Shown: positions 8,281 through 61,453, counted from the stretch's first letter. The stretch is DNA of 64,000 bases from an uncultured beta proteobacterium (GCA_963738755.1 CAVTXZ010000011.1:39841-103840); one strand, 5' to 3'. Program-made: numbers and translations. Notes: a model not told the origin generated them from the sequence alone.

Positions 8281-8405
8281 CGCCGTCCGTTCGCACGATG
8301 CGCTACAGACGCTGACGTGCGCTGAACGAACGATGTAAGCGTCATGGGCGGCATTTGTAATTCAACGCATCGCGGATGCAACTGATTGGGTCACTGAGAA
8401 CCTGT

Positions 8406-9450
8406 ATGGCAAAGATCTTTATCTACGGCGCCGGCTCTATCGGCTGTTATGTCGGCGGACGACTTCTCGCCGGGGGCGCCGACGTCCGTTTCATTGGACG
8501 TGCTCGCGTGGCCGATCAGTTGCGCAGTGCGGGCATCACGCTGTCGCGGCACGACAATCGCCGCTGGCATGTCCCGCCGGAGCAAACCGACGTATCGACC
8601 GACGCGGCCAGCGCCGCCGCAGCCGATCTCGTGCTCGTCACCGTGAAGTCCGCCGCGACACCCACGGCGGCGGCAGAACTGGCGAACGTGCTTCGCCCCG
8701 GCACGATCGTCGTGAGCTTCCAGAACGGCATCGGCAATGCAGACGTATTGCGCGCCGCGCTGCCTCATCACACGGTGCTGGAGGGCATGGTGCCGTTCAA
8801 TGTCGTCGAACGCGGTCCCGGCGCATTTCATCAAGGCTCGGCGGGCGAGCTGGAGATCAGGCACGCGCGCGGCCATGCAGCCGTTCGTCGAAGCGTTCAA
8901 CCAGGCGGGCCTGCCGCTGATCCAGCACGTCGACATGTTGCCGGTACAGTGGGCAAAGCTGCTGCTCAACCTCAACAATGCCATTAACGCGCTAGCGAAT
9001 CGTCCTTTGAAAGAGGAGCTCTCGCAACGCGCCTATCGGCTCTGCCTCGCCATGGCGCAGAAAGAAGCGCTCGCGCTTCTGAAGCAGGCCGGCATACGGC
9101 CAGTCAAAGTGACGCCGCTTCCGACCTCCTGGATACCGCGTGTTCTCGGCGTACCTGATGCGTTGTTCGAGCGGCTGGGTCGCACGATGCTGACGATCGA
9201 TCCGCTCGCGCGCTCGTCGATGTCCGACGACCTGGCGGCGGGGCGCACCACGGAGGTCGACTGGATAAATGGCGAAGTCGTGCGCCTCGCCAAACGCCTC
9301 GGGCGAACGGCGCCGGTCAACGAACGGCTATGCCAACTCGTGCGGGAGGCCGAGCGAACCGAGGTGCGGCCATCCTGGTCGGGCGAAGCATTGCTGGCCG
9401 AGATGCGGGCTGCAGCGCGTGGCAATTCGGCACTGCACGAAAAAATCTGA
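8406..9450 (+). CDS. 2-dehydropantoate 2-reductase (PanE/ApbA) family oxidoreductase; +1 frameshift near 8868
   Basis: GAGSIG Rossmann motif, VTVKS, SFQNG, then in the next frame WAKLLLNLNN and SSMSDDLAAGRTTEVDWINGEVV. Confidence 0.88.
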
Positions 9451-9599: not shown

Positions 9600-10083
9600 C
9601 TATCCCAACTTGACCAGGTTGTGCACTGGCAACGGGCCGCCCGGAATCTGAATGAGCCGCCCCCCGCCTACGAGCGAACCCAGATCGATGCCGAAGAAGC
9701 CAAGCCGGTCGATCAGTCCGCTCACAGCCAATCTGGCATGCACGTCGTCTCCCGCGAAGAACAACACGCGGTGTCCGCCCTCGGCCTGTGGATCGTCGGA
9801 GAGCAGATGTGCCGGCAGATGATTGAACGCCTTCACAACGCGCGCGCCCGGTACGAGATCGGCGACCACTTCACTCGACGTCCGGCCATTCAATTCGGCG
9901 GGTGCGAACGTCGGCGGTTCGATCGGGTTGTTCGCGTCAATCACGATGCGTCCGCCGAAGTCCGGCAGCCCTGCCATGGCGGACGGCAGCTTCGACCAGT
10001 TCACTGCGACGAGGACGATGTCCTGCGCAGCCGCTTGTTCGCGCGTTCCCGGCGTGATTGAGGGGCCCAGTTCGCGCGCGAGG
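9600..10083 (-). pseudogene. 5'-truncated NADPH-dependent F420-reductase-like (F420_oxidored) oxidoreductase
   Basis: LARELGPSITPGTREQAAAQDIVLVAVNW, IVIDANNP and ARVVKAFNHL are present; the N-terminal GxGxxG region and start codon are missing. Confidence 0.8.
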
Positions 10084-10763
10084 CGACCGACCGCAGCGAG
10101 CCGGCTGGCGTGCTGAAAGTCAGCATGGCGCCGACGTTAGACATCACATACGTCATACAACTGCTCCCGGCGTTCCTCGCCCGCTATCCGATGATTCGTC
10201 CGGATTGGTACTTCGAGAACCGACCCGTCGACCTGATTGCAGAGGGATACGATGCGGCGCTGGGCGGTGGATTCGATCTCGCCCCGGGCGTCGTGTCGCG
10301 CCCATTGGCTGCCGCGCATCTCGTCGCGGTGGCGTCTCCGGCCTACATGGCCGGCCGCGAACCACCAGCCGATCCTGGCGATCTTGCGGCACTCGACGGC
10401 ATCGTGATGCGTTCGAGCCGCACCGGCCGCGTGCGTCATCGAACGATGCGCGACACGGCAGGCGGTGAAATGCTCGCGCAGCTCGGCGAGACCATTATGG
10501 TCAACGACCCCGCCGCGATGCGTGAAGCGGCGATGCTGGGACTGGGGGTTGCGCTACTGACCGTGTCAGACGTGCTGTCGTCGGTCGAACGGGGGGAGCT
10601 CGTACGATTGCTACCGCACTGGTACGCGGACGCCGGGGCAATTTCGATCTATTACGCCATGCGCGCGCTGCTGCCGGCGAAAACACGAGCGTTTGTCGAC
10701 TTTGTTGTCGAAGCGTTCGAGCGGGAGCGATTGGCCGAAAGGTTTGCGGGAAGCATCGAATGA
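10083..10763 (+). pseudogene. 5'-truncated LysR regulator (CrgA-like effector domain only)
   Basis: Begins at the linker EPAGVLKVSM; contains FLARYP, VDLIAEGYDAAL and PAKTRAFVDF; no HTH upstream. Confidence 0.85.
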
Positions 10764-10778
10764 GTCGAACAAATCCCC

Positions 10779-11690
10779 TCAACCCGCGCCGAAAGCCATT
10801 TTCACTCCTGCTGGCGCGCCGTCGGCTTGCGCCTGCGCTGCATCAACTATTTGCATCGCCAGCAAGATAGCGACCGGTTGACGGCTGTGGACAGGACGTT
10901 CGACCAGACCGATTTCCCTGAAGAATGTGGCTTCCTCAAGACTCAAAGCAACCACCCCTTCCGGAAGCAACAGCGCAGATGTAGACGGAAGCAACGCTAC
11001 TCCCGCGCCGCGCCGAACGAGCTGAACAATCCCCTGAAGTTCATCAAGCTCTATCGCCTCCTTCACGGAAATCTTTGAACGGCGCAGAAATTGATCGACA
11101 AGTCTGCCATCGAAAGCGTTCCGGTCGTACCGGATGAACGGCAACGTTTCCAGCAATTCACGCCACGTGAAGCGTTCATGTGTCTCGGGTGCGAGCAGGA
11201 AGAAGGGCTCGGATAACAGCATTCGCCACTGAAGATCTGCGGGGAGAGTGAAGCGGGGTTTAATGATCACCGCCATATCCACCTCTCCGGAATCGACCTG
11301 TCCCAGCAAATTCAGGGAAACCCCTGGAACCAGCCTCACACGGCATTCCGGATTCTCAGATCGGAAGATTGCAACTGCGTCCGCGAGAAAAGAGGCCTGC
11401 GCCGAGGAAATGGCGCCGACACGGATCAAGCCGGCCCGGGAATTGGACGCGCTTCGGCCCAGCTTTGAATAGGCCGCCATGACTTCGTCGGCCACCGCCA
11501 GAGCCTCGTACCCAGCTGAATTGAGCACGGCATGCCGGCCGCTCCGATCGAATAACGCGAGGCCAAGCTCCTCCTCAAGCCTATGGATCTGCGCACTCAC
11601 TGCAGACTGCGTGAGCCCGATATTGGCGCCAGCGCTAGCGAACGATCCGTAGCGCACCACGGCCAAGAAGGTCTGAAGTTCCCGAAGCAT
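10779..11690 (-). CDS. LysR family transcriptional regulator
   Basis: HTH GSFASAGANIGLTQSAVSAQIHRLEEELGLALFDR; divergent from the ABC operon. Confidence 0.95.
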   Translation of the reverse strand: MLRELQTFLAVVRYGSFASAGANIGLTQSAVSAQIHRLEEELGLALFDRSGRHAVLNSAGYEALAVADEVMAAYSKLGRSASNSRAGLIRVGAISSAQASFLADAVAIFRSENPECRVRLVPGVSLNLLGQVDSGEVDMAVIIKPRFTLPADLQWRMLLSEPFFLLAPETHERFTWRELLETLPFIRYDRNAFDGRLVDQFLRRSKISVKEAIELDELQGIVQLVRRGAGVALLPSTSALLLPEGVVALSLEEATFFREIGLVERPVHSRQPVAILLAMQIVDAAQAQADGAPAGVKMAFGAG

Positions 11691-11698
11691 CGCGACTC

Positions 11699-11732
11699 AT
11701 CAAAAAAAATGTTCACAAGGGCAAAGACATAT
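11699..11732 (+). promoter_or_regulatory. Candidate LysR site ATC-N9-GTT plus downstream GGCAAAGACATAT box
   Basis: Immediately upstream of the LysR start; a similar element occurs at 15381-15412. Confidence 0.45.
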
Positions 11733-12015
11733 CGTTTTCGGTGCTTTAATTTTCGCCATAGACTACCCCTAAGCTTCCACCTTGAGAAGCGAAGAACTCC
11801 ACCACGACTTTCTACGCACCGGCATCTGAAGCGCTTGGCGAGCTCCATGACCTACCTGCCCTGTTGTTGCGTCGATTCTTATATGTCTACATAAAAACTG
11901 ATGCGTGTGAACCCTATGTGACCCAGGTAGCGCATTGCCGCATGTGCACCCTTCTTCCTGCACACTTCAGAACAAGATTTTCAAGTCGAGACCAATGTAA
12001 AGAGGAGTATTAGTC

Positions 12016-12915
12016 ATGCTTAAGAAGCTCAGGATTTTCTCAGGGATTGCTTTGCTGGCAATCGCGTGCAGCGCCATGGCTGACGATCTGGGCCCCACGC
12101 TGCAAAAGATCAAGGACACCGGAATCATTTCACTCGGCGTAAGGTATGACTCGCCTCCGTTCAACTATAACCTTGGCGGCAATCAACAGGCCGGATATTC
12201 CTACGACATCAGCACGCAGATCGTCGATGCCGTCAAACACCAACTGAATCTGCCGACGTTGCAGGTGAAGGAATTGAGCGTCACTTCCCAGAACCGGATC
12301 CCGCTGCTGATGAACGGCACAATAGATCTCGAGTGCGGTACGACTACCAACAACCTGGAGCGCGAGAAGCAGGTGGGATTTTCAACCACTATCTTCATCA
12401 TCGGTACTCGACTCCTTGTGAAAAAAGACAGCGGAATCAAGGAATGGTCAGACCTGAAGGGCCACAACGTCGTTGCAGCAGCAGGATCGACCGGTGAGCG
12501 TCTGTTGCGGGACATGAATGACAAGCAAAAGCTGGGAATGAGTGTCATCGGTGCCAAAGACGTGGGAGAGGCGTTCCTGATGCTGGAATCTGGCCGCGCT
12601 GCCGGGTATATGGACGACGATGCAATCCTGTACGCTGAGCGGGCCAAGGCGAGATCGCCGCAGGACTGGGTGGTGGTGGCCAAGCCTTTCACCCGCGAGG
12701 CTTATGGTTGCATGCTCCGCAAGGACGACGCACCGTTCAAGAAGCTGGTGGACAACGTCATTTCCAGAATGATGACGGATGGTTCGATCAACAGGCTCTA
12801 CACCAAATGGTTCACGCAGCCGATACCGCCGCGAGGATTCAACGTTGATTTCCCAATGTCTTCCGATATGAAGACTCTAATCTCCAATCCGAACGATAAG
12901 GCGCTCGACGAGTAG
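12016..12915 (+). CDS. Polar amino acid ABC transporter substrate-binding protein (GltI-like, Glu/Asp family)
   Basis: Signal peptide; TLQKIKDTG, TSQNRIPLLMNGTIDLECGTTTNNLER and KWFTQPIPPRG. Confidence 0.93.
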   Translation: MLKKLRIFSGIALLAIACSAMADDLGPTLQKIKDTGIISLGVRYDSPPFNYNLGGNQQAGYSYDISTQIVDAVKHQLNLPTLQVKELSVTSQNRIPLLMNGTIDLECGTTTNNLEREKQVGFSTTIFIIGTRLLVKKDSGIKEWSDLKGHNVVAAAGSTGERLLRDMNDKQKLGMSVIGAKDVGEAFLMLESGRAAGYMDDDAILYAERAKARSPQDWVVVAKPFTREAYGCMLRKDDAPFKKLVDNVISRMMTDGSINRLYTKWFTQPIPPRGFNVDFPMSSDMKTLISNPNDKALDE

Positions 12916-12939
12916 ATGGGTCTGTATCGAACATTGACG

Positions 12940-12963
12940 GCCGGAAGGCAGCCACCTTCCGGC
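12940..12963 (+). terminator. Intercistronic hairpin after the binding-protein gene (mRNA stabiliser or attenuator)
   Basis: Perfect 9-bp stem GCCGGAAGG/CCTTCCGGC with a 6-nt loop and no U-tract. Confidence 0.5.
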
Positions 12964-13133
12964 ACGGCATAGACCAGTACTCACGAACTCGTTAGAAAAT
13001 CGGCGCGCAGGCGTGTGGCCATCTCCAGTGACCAGAACGACGCGCAAGATCCACGCTTTACTTTTGGCGAATGTCGAAAGACTGCGAACTAACCTGAAGC
13101 GCTCCGCAGTCGGGACACGTTCATACGGATACC

Positions 13134-13862
13134 ATGCCTTATCTTTTCCATTGGAGCGTATTTCTTGAAAAATCCTCCTCTACTGAGACATACCTTGATT
13201 GGATAGTATCCGGACTGAAGGTCACAATCGCCATTGGATTGACCTCGTGGATCATCGCGCTTTGCATAGGCTCCGTTCTCGGAGTGATGCGCACCCTGCA
13301 GAACAGGTGGGCATCCGGATTCGCCAGTGCATACGTCGAACTCTTTAGAAATGTTCCGCTGCTCGTGCAGTTGTTTATCTGGTACTTCGTCGTTCCAGAA
13401 CTGTTGCCCGGCGGCGAAGCGATTAAAAAGATGAATCCTGTCGCCCAGCAATTCCTGGCCGGCGTCATCTGTTTAGGAACATTCACGGCCGCCCGGATTT
13501 GCGAGCAGGTACGTTCCGGCATTGGCAGCCTTTCGCGTGGTCAGGGAAACGCAGGCCTCGCTCTGGGTCTGACCTCTCTACAGACTTACCGCTATGTAGT
13601 GCTGCCCATGGCATTCCGCATCATTGTGCCGCCGCTCACAACGGAGTTTGTCAACATATTTCAGAATTCTGCCGTGGCCTCAACCATCGGCCTTCTGGAT
13701 CTGGCCGGCCAGGGCCGCCAGTTAGTCGATTACACGGCCCGCCCTTATGAGTCGTTTATCGCGGTAACGCTGTTGTACTGCCTCCTCAACGTGGCTGTGA
13801 TGATGCTGATGCGCTGGATCGAACGACGCGCTCGCGTTCCAGGTTACATCGGCAGCAAATAA
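13134..13862 (+). CDS. Amino acid ABC transporter permease (GltJ-like)
   Basis: YVELFRNVPLLVQLFIWYFVVPELLP and EAA-like loop EQVRSGIGSLSRGQ. Confidence 0.93.
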   Translation: MPYLFHWSVFLEKSSSTETYLDWIVSGLKVTIAIGLTSWIIALCIGSVLGVMRTLQNRWASGFASAYVELFRNVPLLVQLFIWYFVVPELLPGGEAIKKMNPVAQQFLAGVICLGTFTAARICEQVRSGIGSLSRGQGNAGLALGLTSLQTYRYVVLPMAFRIIVPPLTTEFVNIFQNSAVASTIGLLDLAGQGRQLVDYTARPYESFIAVTLLYCLLNVAVMMLMRWIERRARVPGYIGSK

Positions 13863-13871
13863 GAGATCAAT

Positions 13872-14558
13872 ATGGCCTACCAATTCGATTTCAGCCTGAT
13901 CAATCCTGCCAACCTTAAAGTGCTTGGCGACGGCATGCTGGTATCCCTCGAGATCACCTTAACGGGGGCGCTCGTCGGTATTGTATGGGGATCGATTCTT
14001 GCGATGATGCGCCTGTCTTCGAATCGGCCGTTGAGCTGGTTCGCAGAGGGATACGTGACCGTCTGCCGCTCGATTCCGCTCGTGATGGTCTTGCTGTGGT
14101 TCTTCCTGATCGTCCCACAGTTGCTACAGAATGTATTACACCTGTCGGCTGCCTCGGATCTGCGGATGACGTCCTCGCTGATAGCTTTCTCGCTGTTCGA
14201 AGCCGCCTACTGCTCCGAGATTATCCGCGCGGGCATTCAGGGCGTTCCACGTGGTCAGCTATTTGCAGCACAAGCGCTGGGAATGCACTACGGACAAGTC
14301 ATGCTCCTGGTGATCCTGCCGCAGGCCTTTCGCAATATGGTGCCGCTTCTTCTGATGCAGGGAATTATCCTTTTCCAGGACACATCGCTTGTCTACGTCA
14401 GTGCATTAGCAGACTTCTTCGGCCGAGCCTACGACATTGGTGAACGCGACGGACGCACGGTAGACATGCTGCTATTCGCCGGCTTCGTATATTTCGTGAT
14501 CTGCTTCATCGCCTCCCGGACGGTAAGGCGTCTCCAGAGAAAAAGGGCTTCCATATGA
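13872..14558 (+). CDS. Amino acid ABC transporter permease (GltK-like)
   Basis: [28 protein letters not shown] and [10 protein letters not shown]. Confidence 0.93.
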
Positions 14559-15289
14559 TCGAGATAATCAACGTATCCAAGCATTACGGGGCTTTCCAGG
14601 TACTAACCGATTGCACCACCCAGGTCGCCAAGGGTGAGGTGGTCGTGGTATGCGGTCCCTCTGGATCAGGCAAATCGACGCTGATCAAGACCATCAACGG
14701 CTTGGAGCCGATACAGAAAGGTGACATCCTGGTCAACGGAACACCCGTCTGTAGCCCGACGACGAATCTTTCGAAGCTTCGGTCAAAGGTCGGCATGGTG
14801 TTTCAGCACTTCGAACTGTTTCCCCACCTGACGATCGCCGGGAATCTGACGCTCGGGCAGATCAAGGTGCTGGGTCGCGGCAAGGACGAGGCAACCGACA
14901 AGGGTCTGAAACTGCTCGACCGCGTCGGTCTCAAGACGCAGGCGGACAAGTACCCGGGTCAGTTGTCCGGCGGCCAGCAGCAGCGCGTGGCAATTGCCCG
15001 TGCGCTCTCGATGGACCCGATCGCCATGCTGTTCGACGAGCCAACGTCGGCGCTCGATCCCGAGATGATCAACGAGGTTCTCGATGTGATGGTCGAGCTC
15101 GCGCGCGAAGGGATGACGATGATGTGCGTGACGCATGAGATGGGTTTCGCGAGGAAGGTTGCACACCGCGTGGTCTTCATGGATCAGGGCAGAATATTGG
15201 AAGACACTCTGAAGGACGAATTCTTCGGCAATGTTGAGGGACGGACGGATCGGGCGAAACAGTTCCTTTCGAGAATTCTCCACCACTAA
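14555..15289 (+). CDS. Amino acid ABC transporter ATP-binding protein (GltL-like)
   Basis: Walker A GPSGSGKS, signature LSGGQQQR, Walker [12 protein letters not shown]. Confidence 0.95.
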
Positions 15290-15380
15290 CCTGTTTCGCA
15301 GAAGGTTTCACAACGACGTCAAAGCTTCGACTCTCCGCTCCCGACGACGGCCCTCGTTTTTTCGTTGATCAGTTCAACCC

Positions 15381-15412
15381 ATCAAAATATTTGGTGAGTG
15401 GCAACGATATAT
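15381..15412 (+). promoter_or_regulatory. Second copy of the candidate LysR site (ATC-N9-GGT ... GGCAACGATATAT)
   Basis: Resembles 11699-11732; lies in the AT-rich region upstream of the aminotransferase. Confidence 0.4.
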
Positions 15413-15530
15413 ATTGATTTTCCTTTTAACGCTATGCAACTACCATGGTTATTACCAAGTACATTGATTAGGAAACCGTATTTCCTTCCTGGATGAAATA
15501 AACACTCAGTAAAACCTACCCCTTCATTTC

Positions 15531-15554
15531 AACCCTGGTTAATCAACCAGGGTT
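15531..15554. repeat. Perfect 10-bp inverted repeat AACCCTGGTT-aatc-AACCAGGGTT
   Basis: Read directly; ends 21 bp before the aminotransferase ATG. Confidence 0.75.
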
Positions 15555-15575
15555 ATATTACGAAGCCGATCGCCC

Positions 15576-16772
15576 ATGCTATCCAAACTTCTTGGTGAAG
15601 TTAAACCTTCACCGACGCTTTCCATTACGAGGCGTGCAGCCGACATGCGTCGAAGAGGCATCGACGTTGTGAGTCTTTCTCAGGGAGAACCAGACTTCCC
15701 TACTCCCGACCATATCTGCGAGGCGGCGAAACGCGCAATTGACTCTGGCGCCACTCGCTACACCGACGTTGACGGCACCCCCGAGTTGAAGGAAGCCATC
15801 GTTCGAAAATTCTGGCGCGACAACAGCCTTTCTTACGATGTCAGCGAAATCAGTGTTGGCACGGGCGGCAAGCAGGTTATTTTCAATGCACTGTTTGCTT
15901 CAGTTAATCCTGGCGACGAGGTCATTCTCCCGGCGCCCTATTATGTCTCGTATCCCGACATGGTTCGGTTGGCGGGCGCTGTGCCCGTCGAAGTCGCGTG
16001 CAGCGAAGCACAGGGGTTCAGGATTACCCCAGAGCAGCTTCGCGAAGCGATTACGCCTCGCACCAAGTGGTTGATTCTTAACTCTCCTGGCAACCCTACT
16101 GGAGCAGGTTATTCGCGCGTAGAACTGAACGCGCTGGCGGCGGAGCTCCTCAGGCATCCGCACGTTCTGGTGATGACGGACGACATCTACGAACATATTC
16201 GCTATGACGGGTGGCAGTTCTCGACCATCGGGTCGGAAGCACCAGATCTGCGCGAGCGGATTCTTACCGTCAATGGCATGTCGAAGGCTTACTCAATGAC
16301 AGGATGGCGCATCGGCTACGCCGGTGGTCCGAAGTCGCTCATCGAGGCGATGGCAACTATCCAGTCACAAAGCACCAGCAACCCCTGCTCCGTCTCTCAA
16401 GCTGCAGCACAAGCCGCATTGGACAGTCCGATGGATTTCATCACGGAACGCAATCAGGCGTTCCAACGCAGGCGCGACATGGCGTTGAGCAAATTGAACG
16501 CGATCGACGGCATTCGCTGCAGAAGTCCAGAGGGTGCGTTCTATCTGTTCCCCTCCTGCGAAGGACTGATCGGCAGAGCAACGCCAGAAGGAAAGGTTCT
16601 GCAAAACGACCTCGACCTCTGTCAATACCTGTTTGATCACGCGCACGTTGCAGTGGTGCCTGGCAGCGCCTTTGGTACCGGAGGGCATTTCCGGATTTCG
16701 TTTGCTACGTCAGACGAGCGTCTGGCGCTGGGGTGTGATCGCATTAGTCAAGCTTGCGAGCGGCTGGCTTAG
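15576..16772 (+). CDS. PLP-dependent class I/II aminotransferase (aspartate aminotransferase subgroup Ib)
   Basis: GEPDF, GGKQ, NSPGNPTG, DDIYEH and PLP lysine motif SKAYSMTGWRIGY. Confidence 0.95.
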   Translation: MLSKLLGEVKPSPTLSITRRAADMRRRGIDVVSLSQGEPDFPTPDHICEAAKRAIDSGATRYTDVDGTPELKEAIVRKFWRDNSLSYDVSEISVGTGGKQVIFNALFASVNPGDEVILPAPYYVSYPDMVRLAGAVPVEVACSEAQGFRITPEQLREAITPRTKWLILNSPGNPTGAGYSRVELNALAAELLRHPHVLVMTDDIYEHIRYDGWQFSTIGSEAPDLRERILTVNGMSKAYSMTGWRIGYAGGPKSLIEAMATIQSQSTSNPCSVSQAAAQAALDSPMDFITERNQAFQRRRDMALSKLNAIDGIRCRSPEGAFYLFPSCEGLIGRATPEGKVLQNDLDLCQYLFDHAHVAVVPGSAFGTGGHFRISFATSDERLALGCDRISQACERLA

Positions 16773-16875
16773 ACAAATCCGGGAGCATGCACCTGCATGC
16801 CGGGCGGAATCCGGGTAACGGAGAAATTCTCTTTGTGAGGCACTTCCGCATCTATCGAACACTAGTGAGACTCCC

Positions 16876-17662
16876 ATGGACTTAGGTATCAAGAATCGCG
16901 TTGCGCTTGTCATGTCAGCCGGTGGTGGACTCGGCTCAGCTATCGCCCTGGCGCTCGCTCGCGAAGGCGCGACGGTCGCCGTGTCGGATCAGAATCGCGA
17001 AGCACTGGAAGACACCGTATCGCGCATTCGCGCGGCTGGAGGCGAGGCCTACGGCTTCCAGGCCGACCTGGCCGACCTGGAAAGCATCACTGCCATGGTC
17101 GCGGATGTCAGAAGCACGCTGGGCGACCCGCAAATCCTGATCAACAATTCCGGCGGACCGCCCCCTTCGCCGGCCTGCAGGTGTGGCAGCGGAACAGTGG
17201 CGAAAGCAATTTGACGCGATGGTTCTGTCACTGATGCATCTCACTGACCTGCTGTTGCCCGCGATGAAACAGGAAGGTTGGGGGCGCATCGTCACGAGCG
17301 CTTCCTCCGGCGTGGTCGCACCCATACCCAACCTCGGCATGTCCAATGCGTTGCGCCTCGCCTTGTTGGGCTGGTCGAAGACATTGGCCAATGAGGTCGC
17401 TGCCGATGGCATCTGCGTCAACGTCGTTCTGCCAGGACGAATCGCGACGGACCGCATCCGTTCACTGGACGAGGCACGTGCAAGCCGCGAAGGCAAGACC
17501 TACGAGGAAGTCGTTGCCGCGAGCACGGCGTCGATACCGGTCGGGCGCTATGGCAAACCCGACGAATATGCTGACGCAGTGGCATTCCTCGCCAGCGAGC
17601 GCGCGGCTTTCATAACGGGCTCCGTTATACGCGTCGACGGCGGCATGATCCCCAGTATTTAA
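16876..17662 (+). CDS. Short-chain dehydrogenase/reductase (SDR); +1 frameshift near 17175
   Basis: MDLGIKNRVALVMSAGGGLG, LINNSGGPPP, then SNALRLAL, VNVVLPGRIATDR and ITGSVIRVDGG. Confidence 0.88.
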
Positions 17663-17684
17663 TCGATCTATTCCAAAGGAACAG

Positions 17685-18384
17685 ATGATGGAAACAATTC
17701 CTGTAGTGCGAAGCGCAGCGGATCGCGAGGCCATTCGCCAACGATTTTTGTTAGTGGACACATCCAACGTCGCCGACGTGCTCGACACGCTCGGTTTGTT
17801 CCACCAGGGACTCTCGTCGGTCCTTGTCCCCTATCCTGCTTCGTGCAGCAAGCTGGCAGGCTGGGCATATACGATTCGCGGTCAGATGTCTCCGTATCGA
17901 ACTCGGCGGCGACCCGGACAAGATGAAAGCCTGCGCAGGGGTGTCGACAGGCGATGTCACGGTCTGGAGCGGCGACGGGGAAGGTGTCTGCTATTTCGGC
18001 GAACTCATCGCCATTGGAATGAAAGAGCGAGGCTGCGTGGGATCGCTAGTCGACGGCGGCATTCGCGACATTCGCTGGATTGCCGACCAGGATTTTCCGG
18101 TGTTCGCGCGCTATCGCACTCCAGTGCAATCCATTGCGCGCTGGAAGGTCAATGGCTGGCAAGTGCCAGTGAGCATCCGTGGCGCGACCTCTCAATGGGT
18201 AACAGTACGCCCCGGCGACTTCGTGCTCGGTGATGAAGATGGTGTCCTGGTCATTCCAGACGAAGTGGTCGAGACGGTGCTGGTCGAAGCAGAACGCTTA
18301 ACGGAGAAGGAAAGGCTCATCCGTATCGATTTGCAACAAGGGCTTAGTCTGGCTGAGGCATTGGCGAAGTACGGGCATGTCTGA
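17685..18384 (+). CDS. RraA family protein / putative HMG-CHA aldolase; +1 frameshift near 17898
   Basis: DTSNVADVLD, G.AYT, FGE-X20-RD and VRPGDFVLGDEDGVLVIP. Confidence 0.85.
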
Positions 18385-18546
18385 TCATGTAATGCCGCCC
18401 GGCCACTCCATGATCGCGAGCGTCAGGTTCACGCGTCGCGAGATACTTTCGCGCGATGCCTCGCACAGCGGCTGAGAGGCAAACCACAGACTGCTATCGC
18501 TACAAACCGCGGCGACATGGGGAAACGGGCTCTTGCAGACCGTTTC

Positions 18547-19626
18547 CTAGAAATAGTGACGCAGCCCGATTGCCGCGACGCCCTGCGCGGAACTCGAACT
18601 GGGCGACATTCCGAATATTTGTGCAGGGCGGCCACCCGTCGCATGCTGGAAGACGTAAGTCACGTAAATGTCTGTGGCCTTGCTGAGTCTGTAGTCGTAG
18701 ACCACGCCATATGTGCTTCGGATACTCGCGTAGAAAACGTTTTTTGCACCGTTGTTTTTGTCGAGGTACGTGTATTCCACTCCGGCAACCTGGAACGGTG
18801 TGATGTTGTATCGCACACCGACATCAAAGATGCTGGCAACGTCGCCGGTCAGCGTCCATCGCGAGTTGGTATAGAGCGCATTGACGATAAAGTCGCCCAG
18901 AGACGTCGTGCCGCCTACACCCAGCGTACGCAACGTCCCTGGTGTCAGATTGTCCTTCCGGATCGTGTAAACAGCGCCCACTAGCGTCCCGGTCGTCGTC
19001 CACGTCGCTCCATAGCTTTGCGTGCTATTAGGCGAGCCGATTCCCGGCGCGTCGCCGAATCCGTACATCGCGCCAAAGCTCAATGACTTCACAGGACTCC
19101 ACGTTGCCTTCACTGAGCTATCGACTTCACCTCCCCCAATGCGATCGAGCGAGGGATTGCTGCCGTTGTTGCCAAAGAAGTTGGCGTTGATTGCCGGGTG
19201 GAACTCTAGCGATGTACCGTACCAGGAGTTCGCGGTAGTCTGCAGGTAGTCCAGCATGAAGTCCGGCTGCCTGCCGAATAACACCTGCACCTTATCGTTG
19301 GCCAGTCCGACGTAAGCGTAACGACCGAAGATCCGCTGCGCAGTCGACGTGCTCTGGCCGAGCACCCCGTTGTTCAGCGAGAATCCGCTTTCAAGCCGGA
19401 ATACCGCCTTGAGGCCTCCGCCAAGATCCTCACGGCCCTGGAGGCCCCATCGGTCTCCGCGCATCATGCTGCTGGCCTCCTGCACACTATGGTGCCCACC
19501 CTGATTGGTGGTGTATTGAATCCCAACGTCAAGGATTCCATATAATGTGACGGAACTCTGAGCGTGCGCAATGGGTGTAGCCGATACGACGACGCCTGCA
19601 GCAACCGGATAGAGCCATGACTTCAT
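18547..19626 (-). CDS. Gram-negative trimeric porin (Burkholderia OmpC/OpcP type)
   Basis: AHAQSSVTLYG, RWGLQGREDLGGG, YRLSKAT and C-terminal GLRHYF. Confidence 0.93.
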   Translation of the reverse strand: MKSWLYPVAAGVVVSATPIAHAQSSVTLYGILDVGIQYTTNQGGHHSVQEASSMMRGDRWGLQGREDLGGGLKAVFRLESGFSLNNGVLGQSTSTAQRIFGRYAYVGLANDKVQVLFGRQPDFMLDYLQTTANSWYGTSLEFHPAINANFFGNNGSNPSLDRIGGGEVDSSVKATWSPVKSLSFGAMYGFGDAPGIGSPNSTQSYGATWTTTGTLVGAVYTIRKDNLTPGTLRTLGVGGTTSLGDFIVNALYTNSRWTLTGDVASIFDVGVRYNITPFQVAGVEYTYLDKNNGAKNVFYASIRSTYGVVYDYRLSKATDIYVTYVFQHATGGRPAQIFGMSPSSSSAQGVAAIGLRHYF

Positions 19627-19908
19627 TTTTTCCCCTTGTGTTAGTGAGTGTACAAAGTCGCGGCTTGTGTGACGACACCCTGATTAAGTGTGCCGACCGT
19701 TCTGTACTCCGCGTAATGACTTAAAGTGCCGGGTCATTAATCGGCGCACAAGACTCCAGACTGGAACATCACATTCCGAATCTGGTCATCCGGGTTTTCA
19801 CGGTATGAGCGGGAACGAGTCGAGGGGATACGGCGAAGGAATTTTTTGCACTGCAAGACGCGAGCGCGCGAACAAGCCTGCGCCGGTTAAAAGGCGGCGT
19901 AGCGGGGT

Positions 19909-20796
19909 CTACACCTTTTCGCTGTTGAAGTGCCTGGCCAGAAAATCCACGAATGACCGTACTTTTGGAGAGAGAGTGCGGTGCCGTGGAAAGACCGCAT
20001 TGATCTCCCGCTCGCCTCTTTCCCAATCCAGCATGACCCGTACCAATCTGCCCTCTGCAATGTCTTGATGACACAGATAGTCGGGCAACCAGGCCAATCC
20101 CGACCCTGCCAACAGGACGGTCCGAAGCGTACTCGTGTCATTGGCAAAGAAACGCGGATGCACGGCAATAGAAGACGACTCTTCGCCTCGACGCAAACGC
20201 CACTCGCACGGGCCGTCGGCAATATCTAGGAGAAAATGGGCCGGAAGGTCGGCCGGCGACTCCGGCGTGCCGCTTTTGCGCAGATAGGCAGGCGTGGAAA
20301 CCAGCACCAGCCTGGCGCTCCCCAGTCTTTTCGCAATCAACCTGGAATCCTCCAGCGCGCCCGTTCGAATGACGACATCCATTTCGTCCGTGAGCGGTTC
20401 CATCTTGCTGCTGGTGAGTTCCAGGGACACCTGGACGTCTGGATAGGTAGCGAGATATTCGGGGACAAGCGGCGCAATCATGAACTGCCCGGGCGTGACC
20501 GGCGAGCTGACTCGCAGAAGCCCCCGCGGAGTCAGTCGCACCTGCCCGACCTTTTCCTCCGCTTCTTCTACCTCGTCGAGTATCTTCTTTGCAGACTCCG
20601 CAAACAGCAGGCCGGTATCGGTCAACGCCACCTTGCGATTGGACCGGATAATCAATGCTACGCCCAGATGCTCTTCAAGCCGCGTAAGAGACCGGCTGAC
20701 CGAAGACTTGGGCATCGCCAGCACCCGCGCTACTGAACTAAAGCTCATCAACTCGGAAAGCTTCGAAAATACGCGAATGTCGATGAGTTCAATCAT
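19909..20796 (-). CDS. LysR family regulator (CrgA/DmlR-like)
   Basis: SFSSVARVLAMPKSSVSRSLTRLEEHLG, PRGLLRVS and SPKVRSFVDFL. Confidence 0.93.
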   Translation of the reverse strand: MIELIDIRVFSKLSELMSFSSVARVLAMPKSSVSRSLTRLEEHLGVALIIRSNRKVALTDTGLLFAESAKKILDEVEEAEEKVGQVRLTPRGLLRVSSPVTPGQFMIAPLVPEYLATYPDVQVSLELTSSKMEPLTDEMDVVIRTGALEDSRLIAKRLGSARLVLVSTPAYLRKSGTPESPADLPAHFLLDIADGPCEWRLRRGEESSSIAVHPRFFANDTSTLRTVLLAGSGLAWLPDYLCHQDIAEGRLVRVMLDWERGEREINAVFPRHRTLSPKVRSFVDFLARHFNSEKV

Positions 20797-56250: not shown

Positions 56251-57006
56251 CTAGTGCTGAATGATCCGGCTCAGAAAATCCTTTGTACGCGCCTGCCGGG
56301 CCGCCGGATTGCCGAAGAATTCATCGCGCGTGCAGTCCTCGAGAATGCGGCCGCCGACGTCCATGAAAATGATGCGCGTGCCGACGCGCGATGCAAATCC
56401 CATCTCATGCGTCACACACATCATGGTCATGCCGTCCTTCGCGAGCGCGGTCATCACGTCCAGCACCTCGCCGACCATTTCCGGATCGAGCGCGGATGTA
56501 GGTTCGTCGAACAACATGACGACGGGATCCATCGATAACGCACGCGCAATCGCAACTCGCTGTTGCTGCCCGCCCGACAACGTGCCCGGATATTTGTCCT
56601 TGTGCGCGAGGAGGCCAACGCGATCGAGCATCTTGAGGCCACGCGTTCGGGCCTCGTCGCGGCTGCGCCCGAGCACCTTCGTCTGCGCGAGCGTGAGGTT
56701 GTCGGTGACACTCAGATGCGGGAATAACTCGAAATGCTGAAACACCATACCGACACGGCTACGCATCTTCGGCAGGTTCGTTCGCGGTGAATTCACGTGC
56801 GTGCCATCGATATGGATAGCACCTTTCTGGATCGGCTCGAGTGCATTGATGGTCTTGATCAGTGTCGATTTACCCGACCCCGAAGGCCCGCATACGACGA
56901 CAACTTCGCCCTTCGCGATCGAGAAGGAGCAGCCGTCCAGCACCTGGACCGTGCCGTACCACTTCGAGACATCGCGCAGTTCGATCATCGGCTTCATCTG
57001 ACTCAT
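56251..57006 (-). CDS. Amino acid ABC transporter ATP-binding protein (GltL-like)
   Basis: [16 protein letters not shown] and FDEPTSALD. Confidence 0.95.
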
Positions 57007-57015
57007 GGAATTCCT

Positions 57016-57690
57016 TCAACGAATAATCTGCACTCGCTTCTGCACGCGCCGCACGGCTGCGGACAACGTCATGCAAGCGAGGAAATAGACGACTGCCGCA
57101 AGCAGGTAGGCTTCTACCGGCCGGCCGACATTCTTCCCAGCGGTTTCGAATCCCTTTAGCAGGTCGTACGCGCCGATGGCATAGACCAGCGACGTGTCCT
57201 GAAACAAAATGATGACTTGCGTCAGAAACACCGGCAGCATGTTGCGGAACGCCTGCGGAAGCACGACGAGTCGCATGTTCTGCCCGTACGTCATGCCAAG
57301 GGCAAAGCCCGCATTGAACTGACCTCGTGCGATAGCCTGAATCCCCGCGCGGACGATCTCGGAGAAGTACGCCGCTTCGAAGGCGACGAACGTCACGATC
57401 GCGGACATTTCCGCGCCAACGGGTCTGCCCGTCACGAACGGAATGATGAGGAAGAACCACAGCAGCACCATGACCAGCGGAATGGAGCGCATGATGTTCA
57501 CGTAGATGGCAACCGGCCGTTCGAGCGCCGGCTTGCCGAGCATGCGCACGAGAGCCAGTACCGTACCGAAGCCGATTCCGCCAAGCGTCGCCACGATGGT
57601 CAGCCACACGCTATAGCCCAGACCTTTCGCGACAAATGGCGCGACGACATCCCAGCGGAAGAAATCCAGGTCGAGAGTCCCGAGCATCAC
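57016..57690 (-). CDS. Amino acid ABC permease (GltK-like)
   Basis: [28 protein letters not shown] and LFQDTSLVY. Confidence 0.93.
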   Translation of the reverse strand: MMLGTLDLDFFRWDVVAPFVAKGLGYSVWLTIVATLGGIGFGTVLALVRMLGKPALERPVAIYVNIMRSIPLVMVLLWFFLIIPFVTGRPVGAEMSAIVTFVAFEAAYFSEIVRAGIQAIARGQFNAGFALGMTYGQNMRLVVLPQAFRNMLPVFLTQVIILFQDTSLVYAIGAYDLLKGFETAGKNVGRPVEAYLLAAVVYFLACMTLSAAVRRVQKRVQIIR

Positions 57691-57699
57691 CTACACTCC

Positions 57700-58455
57700 T
57701 CAATGAACGGCAGCGGCGCCCGCTGATGCAAACCCAGGAATTCGTGCCCGGCGCTCGACGACATGCATCAGGCGGTTCACACCGAACGCGGTCAGTCCAT
57801 ACAACAGGGTGACCGCGAGATACATCTGAATGGGTGAGGCGGTTTCCTCTCCTGCCTGCCGCGCGAAGAACGTCAACTCGGTGATCGAGACGGCGAAGGC
57901 GACAGACGAATTCTTCACGACGTTCATCGCCTCCGAAGTCAGCGGCGGAATGATGATGCGCAAGGCCATCGGCAGAAGTACATGGCGATAGCTTTGCGCT
58001 GTGGTCAGCCCCAGCGCGAGAGCCGCATTACGTTGACCACCCGAAAGCGAGCGAATGCCGGCGCGCACCTGCTCCGCGATGCGCGCCGACGTGAACAAGC
58101 CGATCGCAATGATGACGAGAACCGCAGCCGGGCACTTCTTGAGCAGCGGAAAGGCATCGGGTATGACGAAGTACCAGAGAAAGATCTGAACGAGCAGTGG
58201 AATGTCGCGGAAAAGCTCCACCCATGCCGCGCCGAGTGACGCAAGCCACGGCCGGTCCGGCAACGTGCGCAACGTCCCCACCGCCACGCCGACGATCAGC
58301 GCGACCAGCAGCGCACCGAGCGAGACCGTCAACGTCCAGCACCAGGCCGAAAGAATCCAGTTCAGGTAGGTCTGGTCGCCACGGCTGCCGAAGCAGCCTG
58401 CGATCGCATCGCCCGTCGTCGTTTCCTTGCAGAACACGCTCCAGTCCAGCGCCAT
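57700..58455 (-). CDS. Amino acid ABC permease (GltJ-like)
   Basis: WVELFRDIPLLVQIFLWYFV, AEQVRAGI and KNSSVA. Confidence 0.93.
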   Translation of the reverse strand: MALDWSVFCKETTTGDAIAGCFGSRGDQTYLNWILSAWCWTLTVSLGALLVALIVGVAVGTLRTLPDRPWLASLGAAWVELFRDIPLLVQIFLWYFVIPDAFPLLKKCPAAVLVIIAIGLFTSARIAEQVRAGIRSLSGGQRNAALALGLTTAQSYRHVLLPMALRIIIPPLTSEAMNVVKNSSVAFAVSITELTFFARQAGEETASPIQMYLAVTLLYGLTAFGVNRLMHVVERRARIPGFASAGAAAVH

Positions 58456-58485
58456 CTCATCTCTCCCCTTGTCGATACCGTTTCG

Positions 58486-59385
58486 TCACCGCGCCGCGTA
58501 GCTTTCCATCGGCAGATCGTTTGGCTGTGCCCACAGCTTGACCAGCGCTTCGGGCGGCTCCATGTTCATGCGGATTCCGCGTGGGGGAATCGGCTGGACA
58601 AACCATTTGCTCCACAGCGTTTTCATCTCGCCGCGGGCGTCCATCTTGCTGATCGTGCCGTCAACGACCTTCTTGAAGTCGGGATCGTCCTTGCGGAACA
58701 TGATGGCGATCGGTTCCGTGTTGAACGGCTCGCCCGTGACCGTATAAGCGGCCGGATTGCGCGAGGTCGCGATGGTCGCGCGCAGCACGCCTTGATCCAG
58801 GACCCAGGCATCCGCACGGCCCGATTCGAGCATCAGGAAGCTATCGGCGTGATCCTTACCGTAAAGATCCGTCCAGCTGAGGCCCGCTGCGCGTTCATGC
58901 TGACGCAGGTGCTGGATCGCGGTCGTTCCCGTCGTCGCCACCACCGTTTTTCCGGACAGGTCGCGCAAGTTGCGAATGCCTGAATCCGCCCGTACGGCCA
59001 TGCGATCTTCTTCGATATACGTCGTGATCGAGAACGCGACGTCGCGCGCACGCGCCTGGTTGTTCGTCGTCGAACCGCATTCGAGATCCACCGTGCCGTT
59101 CTGCACGAGCACCACACGATTCTGCGAATTGACGGTCTGATACTTCACATCGAGCTTAGGCAGGCCGAGCTGCGTTTGAATGGCGGAGACAATCTGTTTG
59201 CAGATGTCCATCTGAAAGCCGATGGGCTGGCCGTCGCCGCCCGTGTACGACAACGGAATCGAACTGTCCCGCACGCCAAGCGTGATCGACTGCGACGCCT
59301 TGATTTTCGCGAGCGTGGATTCCTCCGCTGCGGCGATCTGCGTCGTTACGCAGCAGACCATTGCGACCAGCATCCATGTTTTCAT
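58486..59385 (-). CDS. Amino acid ABC substrate-binding protein (GltI-like)
   Basis: Signal peptide, GVRDSSIPLSY, VDLECGSTTNN, GKDHADSFLMLESGRA and KWFVQPIPP. Confidence 0.93.
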   Translation of the reverse strand: MKTWMLVAMVCCVTTQIAAAEESTLAKIKASQSITLGVRDSSIPLSYTGGDGQPIGFQMDICKQIVSAIQTQLGLPKLDVKYQTVNSQNRVVLVQNGTVDLECGSTTNNQARARDVAFSITTYIEEDRMAVRADSGIRNLRDLSGKTVVATTGTTAIQHLRQHERAAGLSWTDLYGKDHADSFLMLESGRADAWVLDQGVLRATIATSRNPAAYTVTGEPFNTEPIAIMFRKDDPDFKKVVDGTISKMDARGEMKTLWSKWFVQPIPPRGIRMNMEPPEALVKLWAQPNDLPMESYAAR

Positions 59386-59588
59386 CGTCATCCTCCGATT
59401 GTTGCAAGTCCGCGAATTGCAGGTTGTGGACACATGCTCGGATGCGCAAAAAACCACGTCTATTCCGATTTCAGGAAGGCTTCGATACGCCGAGCCTATG
59501 GAAACGGCAATAAAAAAGCGGCGATGCCAATCGACATCGTCGCCAGCGTGTTATGGGTGGGAAGTGTCTAAAAATCGATGCCGGTCTG

Positions 59589-60260
59589 CTATCCGGTCAG
59601 CCCATGCGCTGCCAGCACCTTCTGAAGCCACGCCTGATCGCGAGCGCCCGTCGCGATCTCATCCTTGATGCGAGATTCGTTCGCAGCGATCCTCGCGACT
59701 GCATCGAGGATTCTTCGTGCGTCACTCGCCGGAAAGGACACGACACCATCTTCGTCTCCGACAACCAGATCGCCTGGCGTAACGACTTGTCCGCCGACCG
59801 AAACCGGCACATTGATCGCGCCAGGTCCGACTTTATAAGGCCCGCGATGACTCGAACCGCGCGCATAGCAAGGGAAATCGGCCTCGAAAAACGCGGCGCT
59901 GTCCCGGATAGCGGCATCCAGCACGAAGCCTGCGCATCCGCGCTGTCGTGCGTAAAGCATGATGAGTTCGCCGACCAGGGCGTTAGTCGTGTCCGCGCCG
60001 CCGTCCACGACGAGGACGTGACCGGGCGACATATCCATCAACGCCTTGTAGATCAGAAGATTGTCGCCAGGGCGCGTCTTGACGGTAAACGCGGTGCCGA
60101 CCAGTTTCCGGCTGCGGTGATAGCGTGTCAGGCCGACCACACCTGAAACGCGCTGCAGGCTGTCGCTGATATGCGGCGTCACGATCCGCCTTAGCGCTTC
60201 GACGACCTCGGACGGCGCCAGTGCGGGCGGCGGATGAATGCTGAACTCGGAACTCGACAC
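59589..60260 (-). CDS. RraA family protein (HMG-aldolase-like)
   Basis: TPHISDSL, GTAFTVKTRPGDNL, VGE-X20-RD and PGDLVVGDEDGVV. Confidence 0.9.
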   Translation of the reverse strand: MSSSEFSIHPPPALAPSEVVEALRRIVTPHISDSLQRVSGVVGLTRYHRSRKLVGTAFTVKTRPGDNLLIYKALMDMSPGHVLVVDGGADTTNALVGELIMLYARQRGCAGFVLDAAIRDSAAFFEADFPCYARGSSHRGPYKVGPGAINVPVSVGGQVVTPGDLVVGDEDGVVSFPASDARRILDAVARIAANESRIKDEIATGARDQAWLQKVLAAHGLTG

Positions 60261-60407
60261 GGCAACGCTCCTCTTCGATGGCGGGATCAACTTCCCGCAA
60301 ACGCACGGGAGAGCGCGGCCAATATCGGGCATCCTCATCATTCTGTAAATTCCGAAGATCGGAACGAATCGTTCTGCCGGGCGTATCGAATGTGCCCGCT
60401 TCCAGGC

Positions 60408-61349
60408 TCAAGCCGTTCGCCTCTTGCGCGCCGCAGGTGCCTTCCCGAGCTGAACCATTCTGCTGCGGGATAGCGCCTCAACGGCTGTGTCGACGATCGG
60501 ATTCGCCCGCTCGGTAGACCACGCGACGGCCGTAGTGACGACCGTGACCGCCTCTTTTAGCGGCCGGAACACGACGTTATCCGCCGCCATCTTTTTTAGC
60601 GAATCGGGGACGAGCGCGATGCCCTGTCCACATCCGACGAAAGCGATCTGCGACGCCACAGAGCGCACTTCGTGCAGCACGCGTGGCGAAAACCCTGCGC
60701 CGCGGCACGTCGCGATGATGCTGTCGTAGTAATTCGGACTGAAGTGCCGCGAAAACATGACGAACGCTTCGTCAGCAAGCGACGCAAGCCGCACGCGCGG
60801 CAATTCTGCAAAGCGATGCGTCTTCGGCAAGGCCACCGCAAGGCGGTCCTGCTTGAGCGCTAACGATTGAATCGACGGCCCCTGCTCTCCCTCGAGGCGC
60901 GCGAATGCAAGATCGATGTCGCCGCGTTCGAGTGCTGGGACCGCCTCGACACTGTCGATCTCCTTGACCGAGACGGTTAGCTGGGGAAACTGCGCCTTCA
61001 GATTCTCGATGAAGGGCGGAAGCGTATCGATCATCGCGGACGTGATGGCGCCGATCGTTAATACACCGCTCTTTCCCTGCGTCGCTTCCTGTACCGAGAG
61101 TTCCAGACGCTCGAGTTGCTCGGCGAATTTTCGAACGGCCGGCAGGATTGCAGCGCCGACCTGCGTCAGCTTTGCGCCATGCCGTCCGCGTTCGAACAGC
61201 TTGACCTTCAGCGCCTGTTCGAGCACCTGGATCTGTTCGGTCAAAGGCGGCTGGGACATACCGAGCCGCTGGGCGGCACGGCCGAAATGCTCTTCTTCGG
61301 CGACGGCGAGGAACAACCATAAATGGCGAACGAGTCGAAAGTTGATCAT
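60408..61349 (-). CDS. LysR family regulator
   Basis: EEEHFGRAAQRLGMSQPPLTEQIQVLE. Confidence 0.95.
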   Translation of the reverse strand: MINFRLVRHLWLFLAVAEEEHFGRAAQRLGMSQPPLTEQIQVLEQALKVKLFERGRHGAKLTQVGAAILPAVRKFAEQLERLELSVQEATQGKSGVLTIGAITSAMIDTLPPFIENLKAQFPQLTVSVKEIDSVEAVPALERGDIDLAFARLEGEQGPSIQSLALKQDRLAVALPKTHRFAELPRVRLASLADEAFVMFSRHFSPNYYDSIIATCRGAGFSPRVLHEVRSVASQIAFVGCGQGIALVPDSLKKMAADNVVFRPLKEAVTVVTTAVAWSTERANPIVDTAVEALSRSRMVQLGKAPAARKRRTA

Positions 61350-61453
61350 GGCATTGATAGCTTCGGCGTATGAAAGGGATCCGTTCTTCGGAATTTACAG
61401 ATGCGAATGTAACGCCGAGACTGCAAACTCCGCAACGCATCTGGTAAAAGACC

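Follow-up and report, generated by a model that had tools for sequence, protein, structure and literature searches.

Which amino acid is taken up and broken down by a LysR-linked gene cluster of an uncultured beta proteobacterium, and are all the genes in it intact? The cluster lies at positions 10779-19626 of a 64,000-nt stretch of DNA (GCA_963738755.1 CAVTXZ010000011.1:39841-103840), here called the window; coordinates are those of the whole window unless another contig or locus is named, and the genome to which it belongs is labeled G000. From the window sequence, an earlier note (the original prediction) had read the cluster as a pathway of import, transamination, a redox step and retro-aldol cleavage of a 4-hydroxy(-4-alkyl)glutamate. 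The presence of a gene cluster for acidic amino acid import and breakdown was partly confirmed. We give an even chance to the reading that it is a LysR-controlled operon through which an aspartate-like amino acid would be imported, deaminated to an oxaloacetate-type 2-oxo acid and cleaved to pyruvate. Evidence for this reading comes from loci across many genera: the RraA-like gene adjoins a gene for aspartate dehydrogenase (AspDH) or for an aminotransferase resembling aspartate aminotransferase (AspAT) in 16 of 16 loci examined, and a cognate gene for a short-chain dehydrogenase/reductase (SDR) is found in 13 of the 14 closest loci. From this constant aspartate-deaminating neighbor we argue for an aspartate-like amino acid and for an oxaloacetate-type acid as the substrate of the RraA-like enzyme. 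The AspDH partner in other genera points to chemistry of the aspartate/oxaloacetate type and away from 4-hydroxy(-4-alkyl)glutamate as the substrate.

Genes were called from an open reading frame (ORF) listing and from family scans (Pfam, NCBIfam/curated models with cutoffs) of the 10779-19626 region, as follows (ABC, ATP-binding cassette).

10779-11690, minus strand: LysR-type regulator (Pfam HTH_1 and LysR_substrate), divergent from the operon; 91-92% identity and the same place in five relatives.
11709-11730, no strand assigned: candidate LysR binding site (predicted), an interrupted dyad ATGTT-N12-GACAT with a T-N11-A core.
12016-12915, plus strand: periplasmic binding protein, GltI/DEBP paralogue (SBP_bac_3; NF008063 367 bits, cutoff 375).
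13134-13862, plus strand: ABC permease, GltJ-like (Pfam BPD_transp_1; 90-93% identity in relatives).
13872-14558, plus strand: ABC permease, GltK-like (NF011687 GltK 311.7 bits, cutoff 318).
14555-15289, plus strand: ABC ATPase, GltL/GlnQ-like (Pfam ABC_tran; NF007027 304 bits).
15576-16772, plus strand: subgroup Ib AspAT-like aminotransferase, a paralogue (PF00155 E 4e-78, 263 bits; PRK06107 553.5 bits, cutoff 617).
16876-17662, plus strand: atypical SDR-fold protein in two frames (adh_short halves; extra T at ~17176).
17685-18384, plus strand: RraA-fold protein of a distinct subfamily in two frames (Pfam RraA-like; extra C at ~17898).
18547-19626, minus strand: Porin_4 porin, convergent (Pfam Porin_4 E 6e-40); outside the conserved module.

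These calls bear out the presence of gltIJKL-like importer genes, a class I aminotransferase gene and SDR and RraA homologues, and the motifs named in the original prediction are in place: the aminotransferase has VKPS (residue 9) and GGKQ (residue 97), and the RraA-like protein has G-E-X20-R-D. The genes had been described as running in one direction, which holds for the gltIJKL-like, aminotransferase, SDR and RraA-like genes, all on the plus strand, and not for the divergent lysR on the minus strand. The porin gene is convergent as described and does not belong to the module; no porin homologue stands beside the cluster in the five orthologous loci described below. The SDR and RraA-like genes had been given as plain genes, and the frameshifts that both carry in this assembly had been overlooked.

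The setting of the RraA-like gene differs among genera. In Cupriavidus, Labrys, Pandoraea, Bosea, Noviherbaspirillum and Pararobbsia the clusters contain genes for a LysR regulator, a sugar-type ABC importer, a PuuE-like hydrolase, AspDH, SDR, the RraA-like protein and an AtzE-like amidase, and the Cupriavidus AspDH scores over the curated cutoff (423 bits on NF009825 vs 253). Two of the AspDH-type clusters have a small upstream ORF, and one is followed by genes for malic enzyme and RidA. Variovorax has AspDH, SDR, the RraA-like protein and a NitT/TauT-type importer; in Ramlibacter the AspDH and RraA-like genes adjoin; and a lineage of metagenome-assembled genomes has a CN-hydrolase, AspDH, the RraA-like protein and TctC, with no SDR. 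A Pseudomonas locus encodes GntR, a protein resembling dihydrodipicolinate synthase, an AspAT-like aminotransferase, SDR, a GltIJKL-like importer and the RraA-like protein. Relatives at 64-65% identity have a distant AspDH-family neighbor (34-39%) and no SDR. The amidases (AtzE-like, CN-hydrolase, PuuE-like), RidA and malic enzyme are compatible with a route in which aspartate would be made and then carried via oxaloacetate to pyruvate. A literature search on L-aspartate dehydrogenase, Cupriavidus and oxaloacetate returned a general review only. The small ORF (76-78 aa; L111:8689-8925 and L147:7671-7901) lies directly upstream of the AtzE-like amidase gene in AspDH-type clusters, overlaps that gene and gave no family match; it is reminiscent of AtzG, the small partner of AtzE.

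Close orthologues of the cluster are few. Within the reference set, only five species have aminotransferase orthologues at 89-92% identity, namely Burkholderia sp. OK233 (L001), Caballeronia choica (L002), Paraburkholderia domus, P. fungorum and P. haematera, and the next best match is at 70%. In all five species lysR, the four transporter genes and the aminotransferase, SDR and RraA-like genes are found in identical order with 87-95% protein identity, and the SDR and RraA-like genes are each a single open frame (5/5 loci). The G+C content of the cluster is 55.8% vs 62-63% in the flanks, both for the window copy and for that of Burkholderia sp. OK233. Distribution of the RraA-like gene is patchy: of 401 genomes sampled from the order, it was found in 13. 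By these comparisons the cluster is apparently an accessory, horizontally acquired and LysR-controlled conserved unit. In Burkholderia sp. OK233 a MocR-like regulator and a GntC/VioD-like pyridoxal phosphate enzyme precede the cluster (L001:406-3324); neither is found beside the window copy.

As expected of a LysR-type regulator with a divergent operon, the protein has HTH_1 and LysR_substrate domains, and the promoter region that gene and operon share contains a T-N11-A dyad. The first ~105 nt next to lysR are near-invariant in six genomes, with conservation exceeding that of coding DNA. One dyad half-site reads GACAT in the window and AACAT in the five relatives (ATGTT-N12-(A/G)ACAT). The dyad at 11709-11730 fits a LysR site, to which the regulator would bind. 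An insertion of ~100 nt at 11808-11910, in the lysR-gltI intergenic region, is common to the window and Caballeronia choica and missing from the other four orthologous loci. An Rfam scan of 10500-20000 found no element, and promoter-like and terminator-like sites in the region were not more common than in shuffled sequence.

The binding protein matches the DEBP structures 2IA4/2VHA with an E value of 1e-96 and keeps the DEBP residues R24, S27, S72, R75, T92, and R97; the ligand contacts R24, S27, S72, and T92 are all conserved in the alignment to 2IA4 (for the roles of the ligand-contact residues in DEBP, see PMC10942590 and PMC6003469). Four positions are changed (E25Y, S26D, H164V, and M181D), and H164V is to be read as a sequence difference only, since contact of His164 with the ligand in DEBP could not be confirmed from papers. 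Housekeeping GltI scores 483-491 bits in four complete genomes of the same genus, and the best score in G000 is that of this binding protein, 367 bits. On these scores the binding protein is a diverged GltI paralogue and not the housekeeping Glu/Asp system, because its score is ~120 bits lower than that of the genus's housekeeping GltI. The best PDB match of the aminotransferase is 6F35, the Sinorhizobium "aspartate aminotransferase B" (E value 8e-151), and Thermus thermophilus AspAT (1BJW) is matched at 4e-100. In subgroup Ib aminotransferases the lysine of the GGKQ motif selects dicarboxylic substrates.

The RraA-like protein has 232 aa in the five relatives, where it is intact, and the C-terminal piece in the window matches the RraA-like superfamily PF03737 (83 bits, E value 3e-23). 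The top-scoring model for it is that of a "hypothetical protein" family with no name. The nearest structures are 5IR2 and 3K4I, then 3NOJ, the Pseudomonas putida aldolase for HMG (4-hydroxy-4-methyl-2-oxoglutarate) and CHA (4-carboxy-4-hydroxy-2-oxoadipate). The R-D of the RraA-like protein aligns to Arg123-Asp124 of 3NOJ; the acidic residue 20 positions upstream is a Glu at the Asp102 position, where the genome's own LigK also has Glu; and the C-terminal Glu falls, when the paralogues are aligned, in a near-invariant Glu position matching the metal ligand Glu199, the pairwise alignment to 3NOJ being ambiguous by one residue at this point. The pocket and phosphate site differ from those of the aldolase at N71D, H75M, G144S, T145I, and K147R (GTVK to SIAR), and there is a 5-residue insertion (the roles of Arg123, Asp124, Asp102, Glu199, Asn71, His75, Thr145, and Lys147 in the P. 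putida enzyme are given in PMC5065237).

On the LigK/PcmE model TIGR02798 (cutoff 304.5) the intact Burkholderia sp. OK233 protein scores 73.3 bits and the window copy 70.4. With such scores and different pocket positions, the RraA-like protein is not an orthologue of the HMG/CHA aldolase to which the original prediction had likened it. The original prediction had also pointed to the lack of protocatechuate 4,5-cleavage (lig) genes. This is true of the neighborhood, as no lig or gal genes are found in the cluster or its five orthologous loci, and not of the genome, which carries LigK and LigB on another contig. G000 holds eight RraA-fold genes. A true LigK is encoded on contig C17 (352.8 bits on TIGR02798), ~5 kb from a LigB-family gene (C17:135627-142024); G000 therefore has, outside the window, a gene cluster of the protocatechuate 4,5-cleavage or gallate type.

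We also considered a non-enzymatic role for the protein in regulating RNase E, like that of E. coli RraA, with only an incidental place in the operon. The two have a common Pfam superfamily, but the NF006875 equivalog gives 29.2 bits vs a cutoff of 136, the length is 232 aa vs ~160 aa expected, the catalytic residues are of the enzyme type, and linkage to metabolic genes is strict across genera; this explanation is hardly credible. Members of the RraA-like subfamily show 69-94% identity over a wide set of genera (Cupriavidus, Pseudomonas, Pandoraea, Pararobbsia, Noviherbaspirillum, Variovorax, Labrys, Bosea, and Ramlibacter) and carry automatic names only. RraA-fold enzymes are known for aldol cleavage, oxaloacetate decarboxylation and sugar-acid dehydration/decarboxylation, and the NCBIfam names of LigK-type models include oxaloacetate decarboxylase.

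The two halves of the SDR match positions 1-92 and 97-193 of adh_short and place it in PF00106. The glycine motif is a variant, A-G-G-G-L-G, and the catalytic Tyr-x3-Lys is replaced by S-N-(A/T)-(L/A)-R in 12 of 12 orthologues, while most ordinary SDR paralogues of G000 keep both Tyr and Lys. The nearest structures, 2Z1N, 5VA8, and 1O5I (E values 7e-48 to 6e-42), also have S-N-x-x-R. With Tyr and Lys missing in all orthologues, the redox step that had been assigned to the SDR is doubtful, and classical carbonyl oxidoreduction is not assured. CDD describes a "BKR-like SDR-like" group of such SDRs. A Tyr-less SDR presumably lies near the AspDH gene of Pseudomonas aeruginosa; no paper was found that mentions two of PA3505, PA3506, and PA3507. 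SDRs that reduce C=C bonds offer precedents: Mentha isopiperitenone reductase is such an enzyme with a rare catalytic-residue substitution (PMC4988501), and AerF is cited as a C=C reductase SDR (PMC10143770). By analogy, these precedents may serve as a lead only for the SDR described here. PDB entry 6JH7 may be AerF; the review that cites AerF gives no PDB code.

Two further modules of like design are found in G000. The one at window 56251-63860 has, on the minus strand, genes for an ABC ATPase, two permeases and an SBP_bac_3 protein together with an RraA-like gene (59589-60341) and lysR (60408-61349). Its plus strand carries tandem RraA-like genes (61454-62122 and 62119-62781) and then a class I aminotransferase gene (62778-63860), an ORF of only 360 aa that may be cut short. 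The other, at C22:146700-151700 (L144:5734-10622), encodes LysR, aconitase-family large and small subunits, an RraA-like protein, an aminotransferase of AspAT type and a binding protein resembling GltI (346.6 bits); the place that the SDR has in the 10779-19626 cluster is taken here by a hydratase.

As for the intactness of the last two genes, the SDR is split between two frames (16876-17214 and 17183-17662), and so is the RraA-like gene (from ATG at 17685 to ~17897, then 17899-18384). Alignment with the five related species attributes this to the single extra T and the single extra C listed above, neither of which is in a homopolymer. Contigs from four public runs match the region at ~99% (e.g., a 2,196-nt contig with 16 mismatches) and have neither extra base; the T is missing from contigs of runs X1, X2, and X3, and the C from contigs of X1, X2, and X7. 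The same contigs also lack single bases at 8870, 15294, 15370, and 17670, and of the eight indel differences in 11.4 kb, seven are surplus bases in the window, intergenic ones included. The best-matching runs have only 0.66 and 0.47 of the sampled words in common with the window and were compared as Logan contigs, which are not the source reads of the assembly; no RNA run was listed among the matches. For a genome-wide test, a 400-kb part of a complete genome from the same genus supplied 124 proteins, which were mapped onto G000. Nine of the 124 conserved genes (~7%) span at least two frames, with ~13 events in the 174 kb of coding sequence covered, ~10 of the 13 being +1; two of the nine split cases (upp and thrC) may be artefacts of over-long control ORFs. 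Among the split genes are an arnA-like pair and nirB, the latter with four shifts though 89-92% identical. The assembly is 82% complete and none of the rpoB, rpoC and tuf signature motifs was found in it, on which grounds G000 looks like a metagenome-assembled genome.

Since conserved genes genome-wide are split mostly by non-homopolymer +1 insertions, we consider the insertions in the SDR and RraA-like genes to be probable assembly errors rather than signs of gene decay. If both frameshifts were real, the operon would be decaying in this strain and only the importer and aminotransferase would be functional. The assembly itself, with +1 nt in each of the two genes, speaks for decay, as do two upstream genes (ApbA/PanE and LysR) that are likewise split, and no run holding the source reads was identified among public sequencing runs. 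Strains ~99% identical are nevertheless free of both insertions; the surplus bases of the window extend into intergenic DNA; the two insertions stand outside homopolymers; and splitting, mostly by +1, reaches conserved genes such as the arnA-like genes and nirB. Natural bacterial gene decay is usually biased to deletions, and the insertion bias seen here runs opposite to it. We therefore regard real decay as rather unlikely. The split ApbA/PanE-type reductase gene lies at 8376-9450, where a near-identical contig is one base shorter at 8870, and the split LysR gene at 9823-10763 has its helix-turn-helix and substrate domains in different ORFs.

The reading to which we give an even chance would run as follows. 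The GltIJKL-like ABC importer, a paralogue, would take up an acidic amino acid of Asp/Glu size, most likely L-aspartate or a close C4 analogue, which the subgroup Ib AspAT-like aminotransferase would convert to a 2-oxo-dicarboxylate (oxaloacetate or an analogue). The RraA-fold protein would be a divalent-metal enzyme whose Arg-Asp pair stabilizes a pyruvate enolate, and the C-C bond would be broken to release pyruvate, either by beta-decarboxylation of an oxaloacetate-type acid or by retro-aldol cleavage if the acid has a 4-hydroxyl. The SDR may carry out a C=C or other non-classical reduction on the 2-oxo acid, or may have no redox role. The substrate, the order of the reactions and all the activities in this scheme are deduced from gene content, synteny, residue conservation and neighborhood statistics. 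The retained Arg-Asp, the Glu at the Asp102 position and the near-invariant C-terminal Glu support the aspartate-type reading. The general logic of the original prediction, i.e., LysR-controlled import of an acidic amino acid, transamination and RraA-fold C-C cleavage apart from protocatechuate, is upheld by the synteny in five species, the kept catalytic residues and the diverged GltI; its specifics are not.

Several points weigh against import of an aspartate-like amino acid and its conversion to pyruvate. A route for plain aspartate would have no need of an SDR, but nearly all of the closest loci (13/14) include a cognate one. The pocket differs from that of the characterized aldolase (N71D, H75M, GTVK to SIAR), so that the true substrate may be something other than oxaloacetate or HMG. 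Both C4 and C5 dicarboxylates are taken by enzymes of the AspAT type and binding proteins of the DEBP type, which leaves room for glutamate analogues. The frameshifts could be real, in which case the last two steps would be dead in this strain. No paper was found linking RraA with aspartate dehydrogenase, with or without an SDR, and no measured activity was found for any member of the RraA-like subfamily or the SDR clade. 

A plant-type 4-hydroxy- or 4-hydroxy-4-alkyl-glutamate, which would be transaminated and then split by the RraA-like protein in a retro-aldol reaction to pyruvate plus glyoxylate or pyruvate, is less favored, and we think it improbable. It would agree with the retained catalytic core of class II pyruvate aldolases, with S72 and S27 of the binding protein (the contacts of the glutamate side-chain carboxylate in DEBP), and with the two additional GltI-like/AspAT-like/RraA-like modules, the aconitase-type hydratase in one of them suiting conversion of 4-methyleneglutamate to HMG. 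The RraA-like protein is, however, far under the LigK/PcmE cutoff with a different set of pocket residues, the usual partner is AspDH and no glutamate-type enzyme, and the SDR is left without a role. The SDR would find one if the substrate were a substituted C4 amino acid like 3-hydroxyaspartate, deaminated to 2-oxo-3-hydroxysuccinate and decarboxylated by the RraA-like protein, with the SDR reducing the resulting C3 aldehyde or ketone (tartronate semialdehyde or hydroxypyruvate) to glycerate. This gives work to all three conserved enzymes and is compatible with the alternation of AspDH and AspAT, as it is with a binding protein that is a paralogue other than the housekeeping GltI, but it is purely inferential, the SDR is without the Tyr and Lys used by carbonyl-reducing SDRs, and some AspDH-RraA loci have no SDR at all; it is quite improbable, more so than the glutamate analogue. 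Tentatively, and with clearly less confidence than in the route from an aspartate-like amino acid to pyruvate, we also propose that AspDH or Ib AspAT plus the RraA-like subfamily, usually with the Tyr-less SDR, may form an undescribed, widespread pathway unit with chemistry new for both families, and not a mere oxaloacetate decarboxylase or HMG aldolase. For instance, a 2-oxo or imino acid derived from aspartate would be the substrate of an RraA-fold dehydratase/decarboxylase, and a non-classical (e.g., C=C) reduction would come next.

Automatic annotation routinely labels RraA-fold proteins "HMG aldolase" or "RNase E regulator," and by curated tests this subfamily is neither. It spans alpha-, beta- and gammaproteobacteria, always beside an aspartate-deaminating enzyme. 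Once assigned, the reaction of the RraA-like subfamily and the Tyr-less SDR would correct many annotations and would define a route by which soil/rhizosphere bacteria use aspartate-type amino acids or amides yielding them. Single-base insertions are many in this assembly, and genes that look like pseudogenes in it call for caution and for read-level confirmation.

Compared with known systems, the importer has the four-gene layout of E. coli/Shigella GltIJKL and the DEBP ligand residues R24, S27, S72, R75, T92, and R97, whereas the window binding protein is under the model cutoff, carries E25Y/S26D/H164V/M181D and is set in a catabolic operon. The aminotransferase resembles the subgroup Ib AspATs (AatB 6F35 and 1BJW) in its full-length match, GGKQ and N-terminal KPS, and differs from them as a patchily distributed paralogue under the PRK06107 cutoff, one of at least three module-linked copies in G000. 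The SDR has S-N-x-x-R in common with the Tyr-less clade of APE0912 (2Z1N), 5VA8, and TM1169 (1O5I), whose PDB names give no reaction. With the HMG/CHA aldolase LigK/ProA/GalC (P. putida F1, 3NOJ) the RraA-like protein has in common the RraA-like fold, the R-D and the acidic residue 20 upstream, and its C-terminal Glu may match Glu199; it differs in its score of 70-73 bits, five pocket changes, the 5-residue insertion and the lack of lig/gal neighbors. FlDet of Flavobacterium sp. UMI-01, an RraA-like 2-keto-3-deoxyglucarate dehydratase/decarboxylase (PMC8563752), is an example of the RraA fold doing 2-oxo-acid chemistry beyond aldol cleavage, in a sugar-acid context, and is likened here by description, not by sequence. 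Also comparable are the uncharacterized AspDH-SDR-RraA clusters of Cupriavidus, Labrys, Pandoraea, Bosea, Noviherbaspirillum, Pararobbsia, and Variovorax. They have AspDH in place of the aminotransferase, sugar-type or NitT/TauT-type importers in place of GltIJKL, and an extra PuuE-like hydrolase and AtzE-like amidase, and they agree with the window cluster in having the orthologous SDR (60-84%) and RraA-like (71-89%) genes side by side under LysR.

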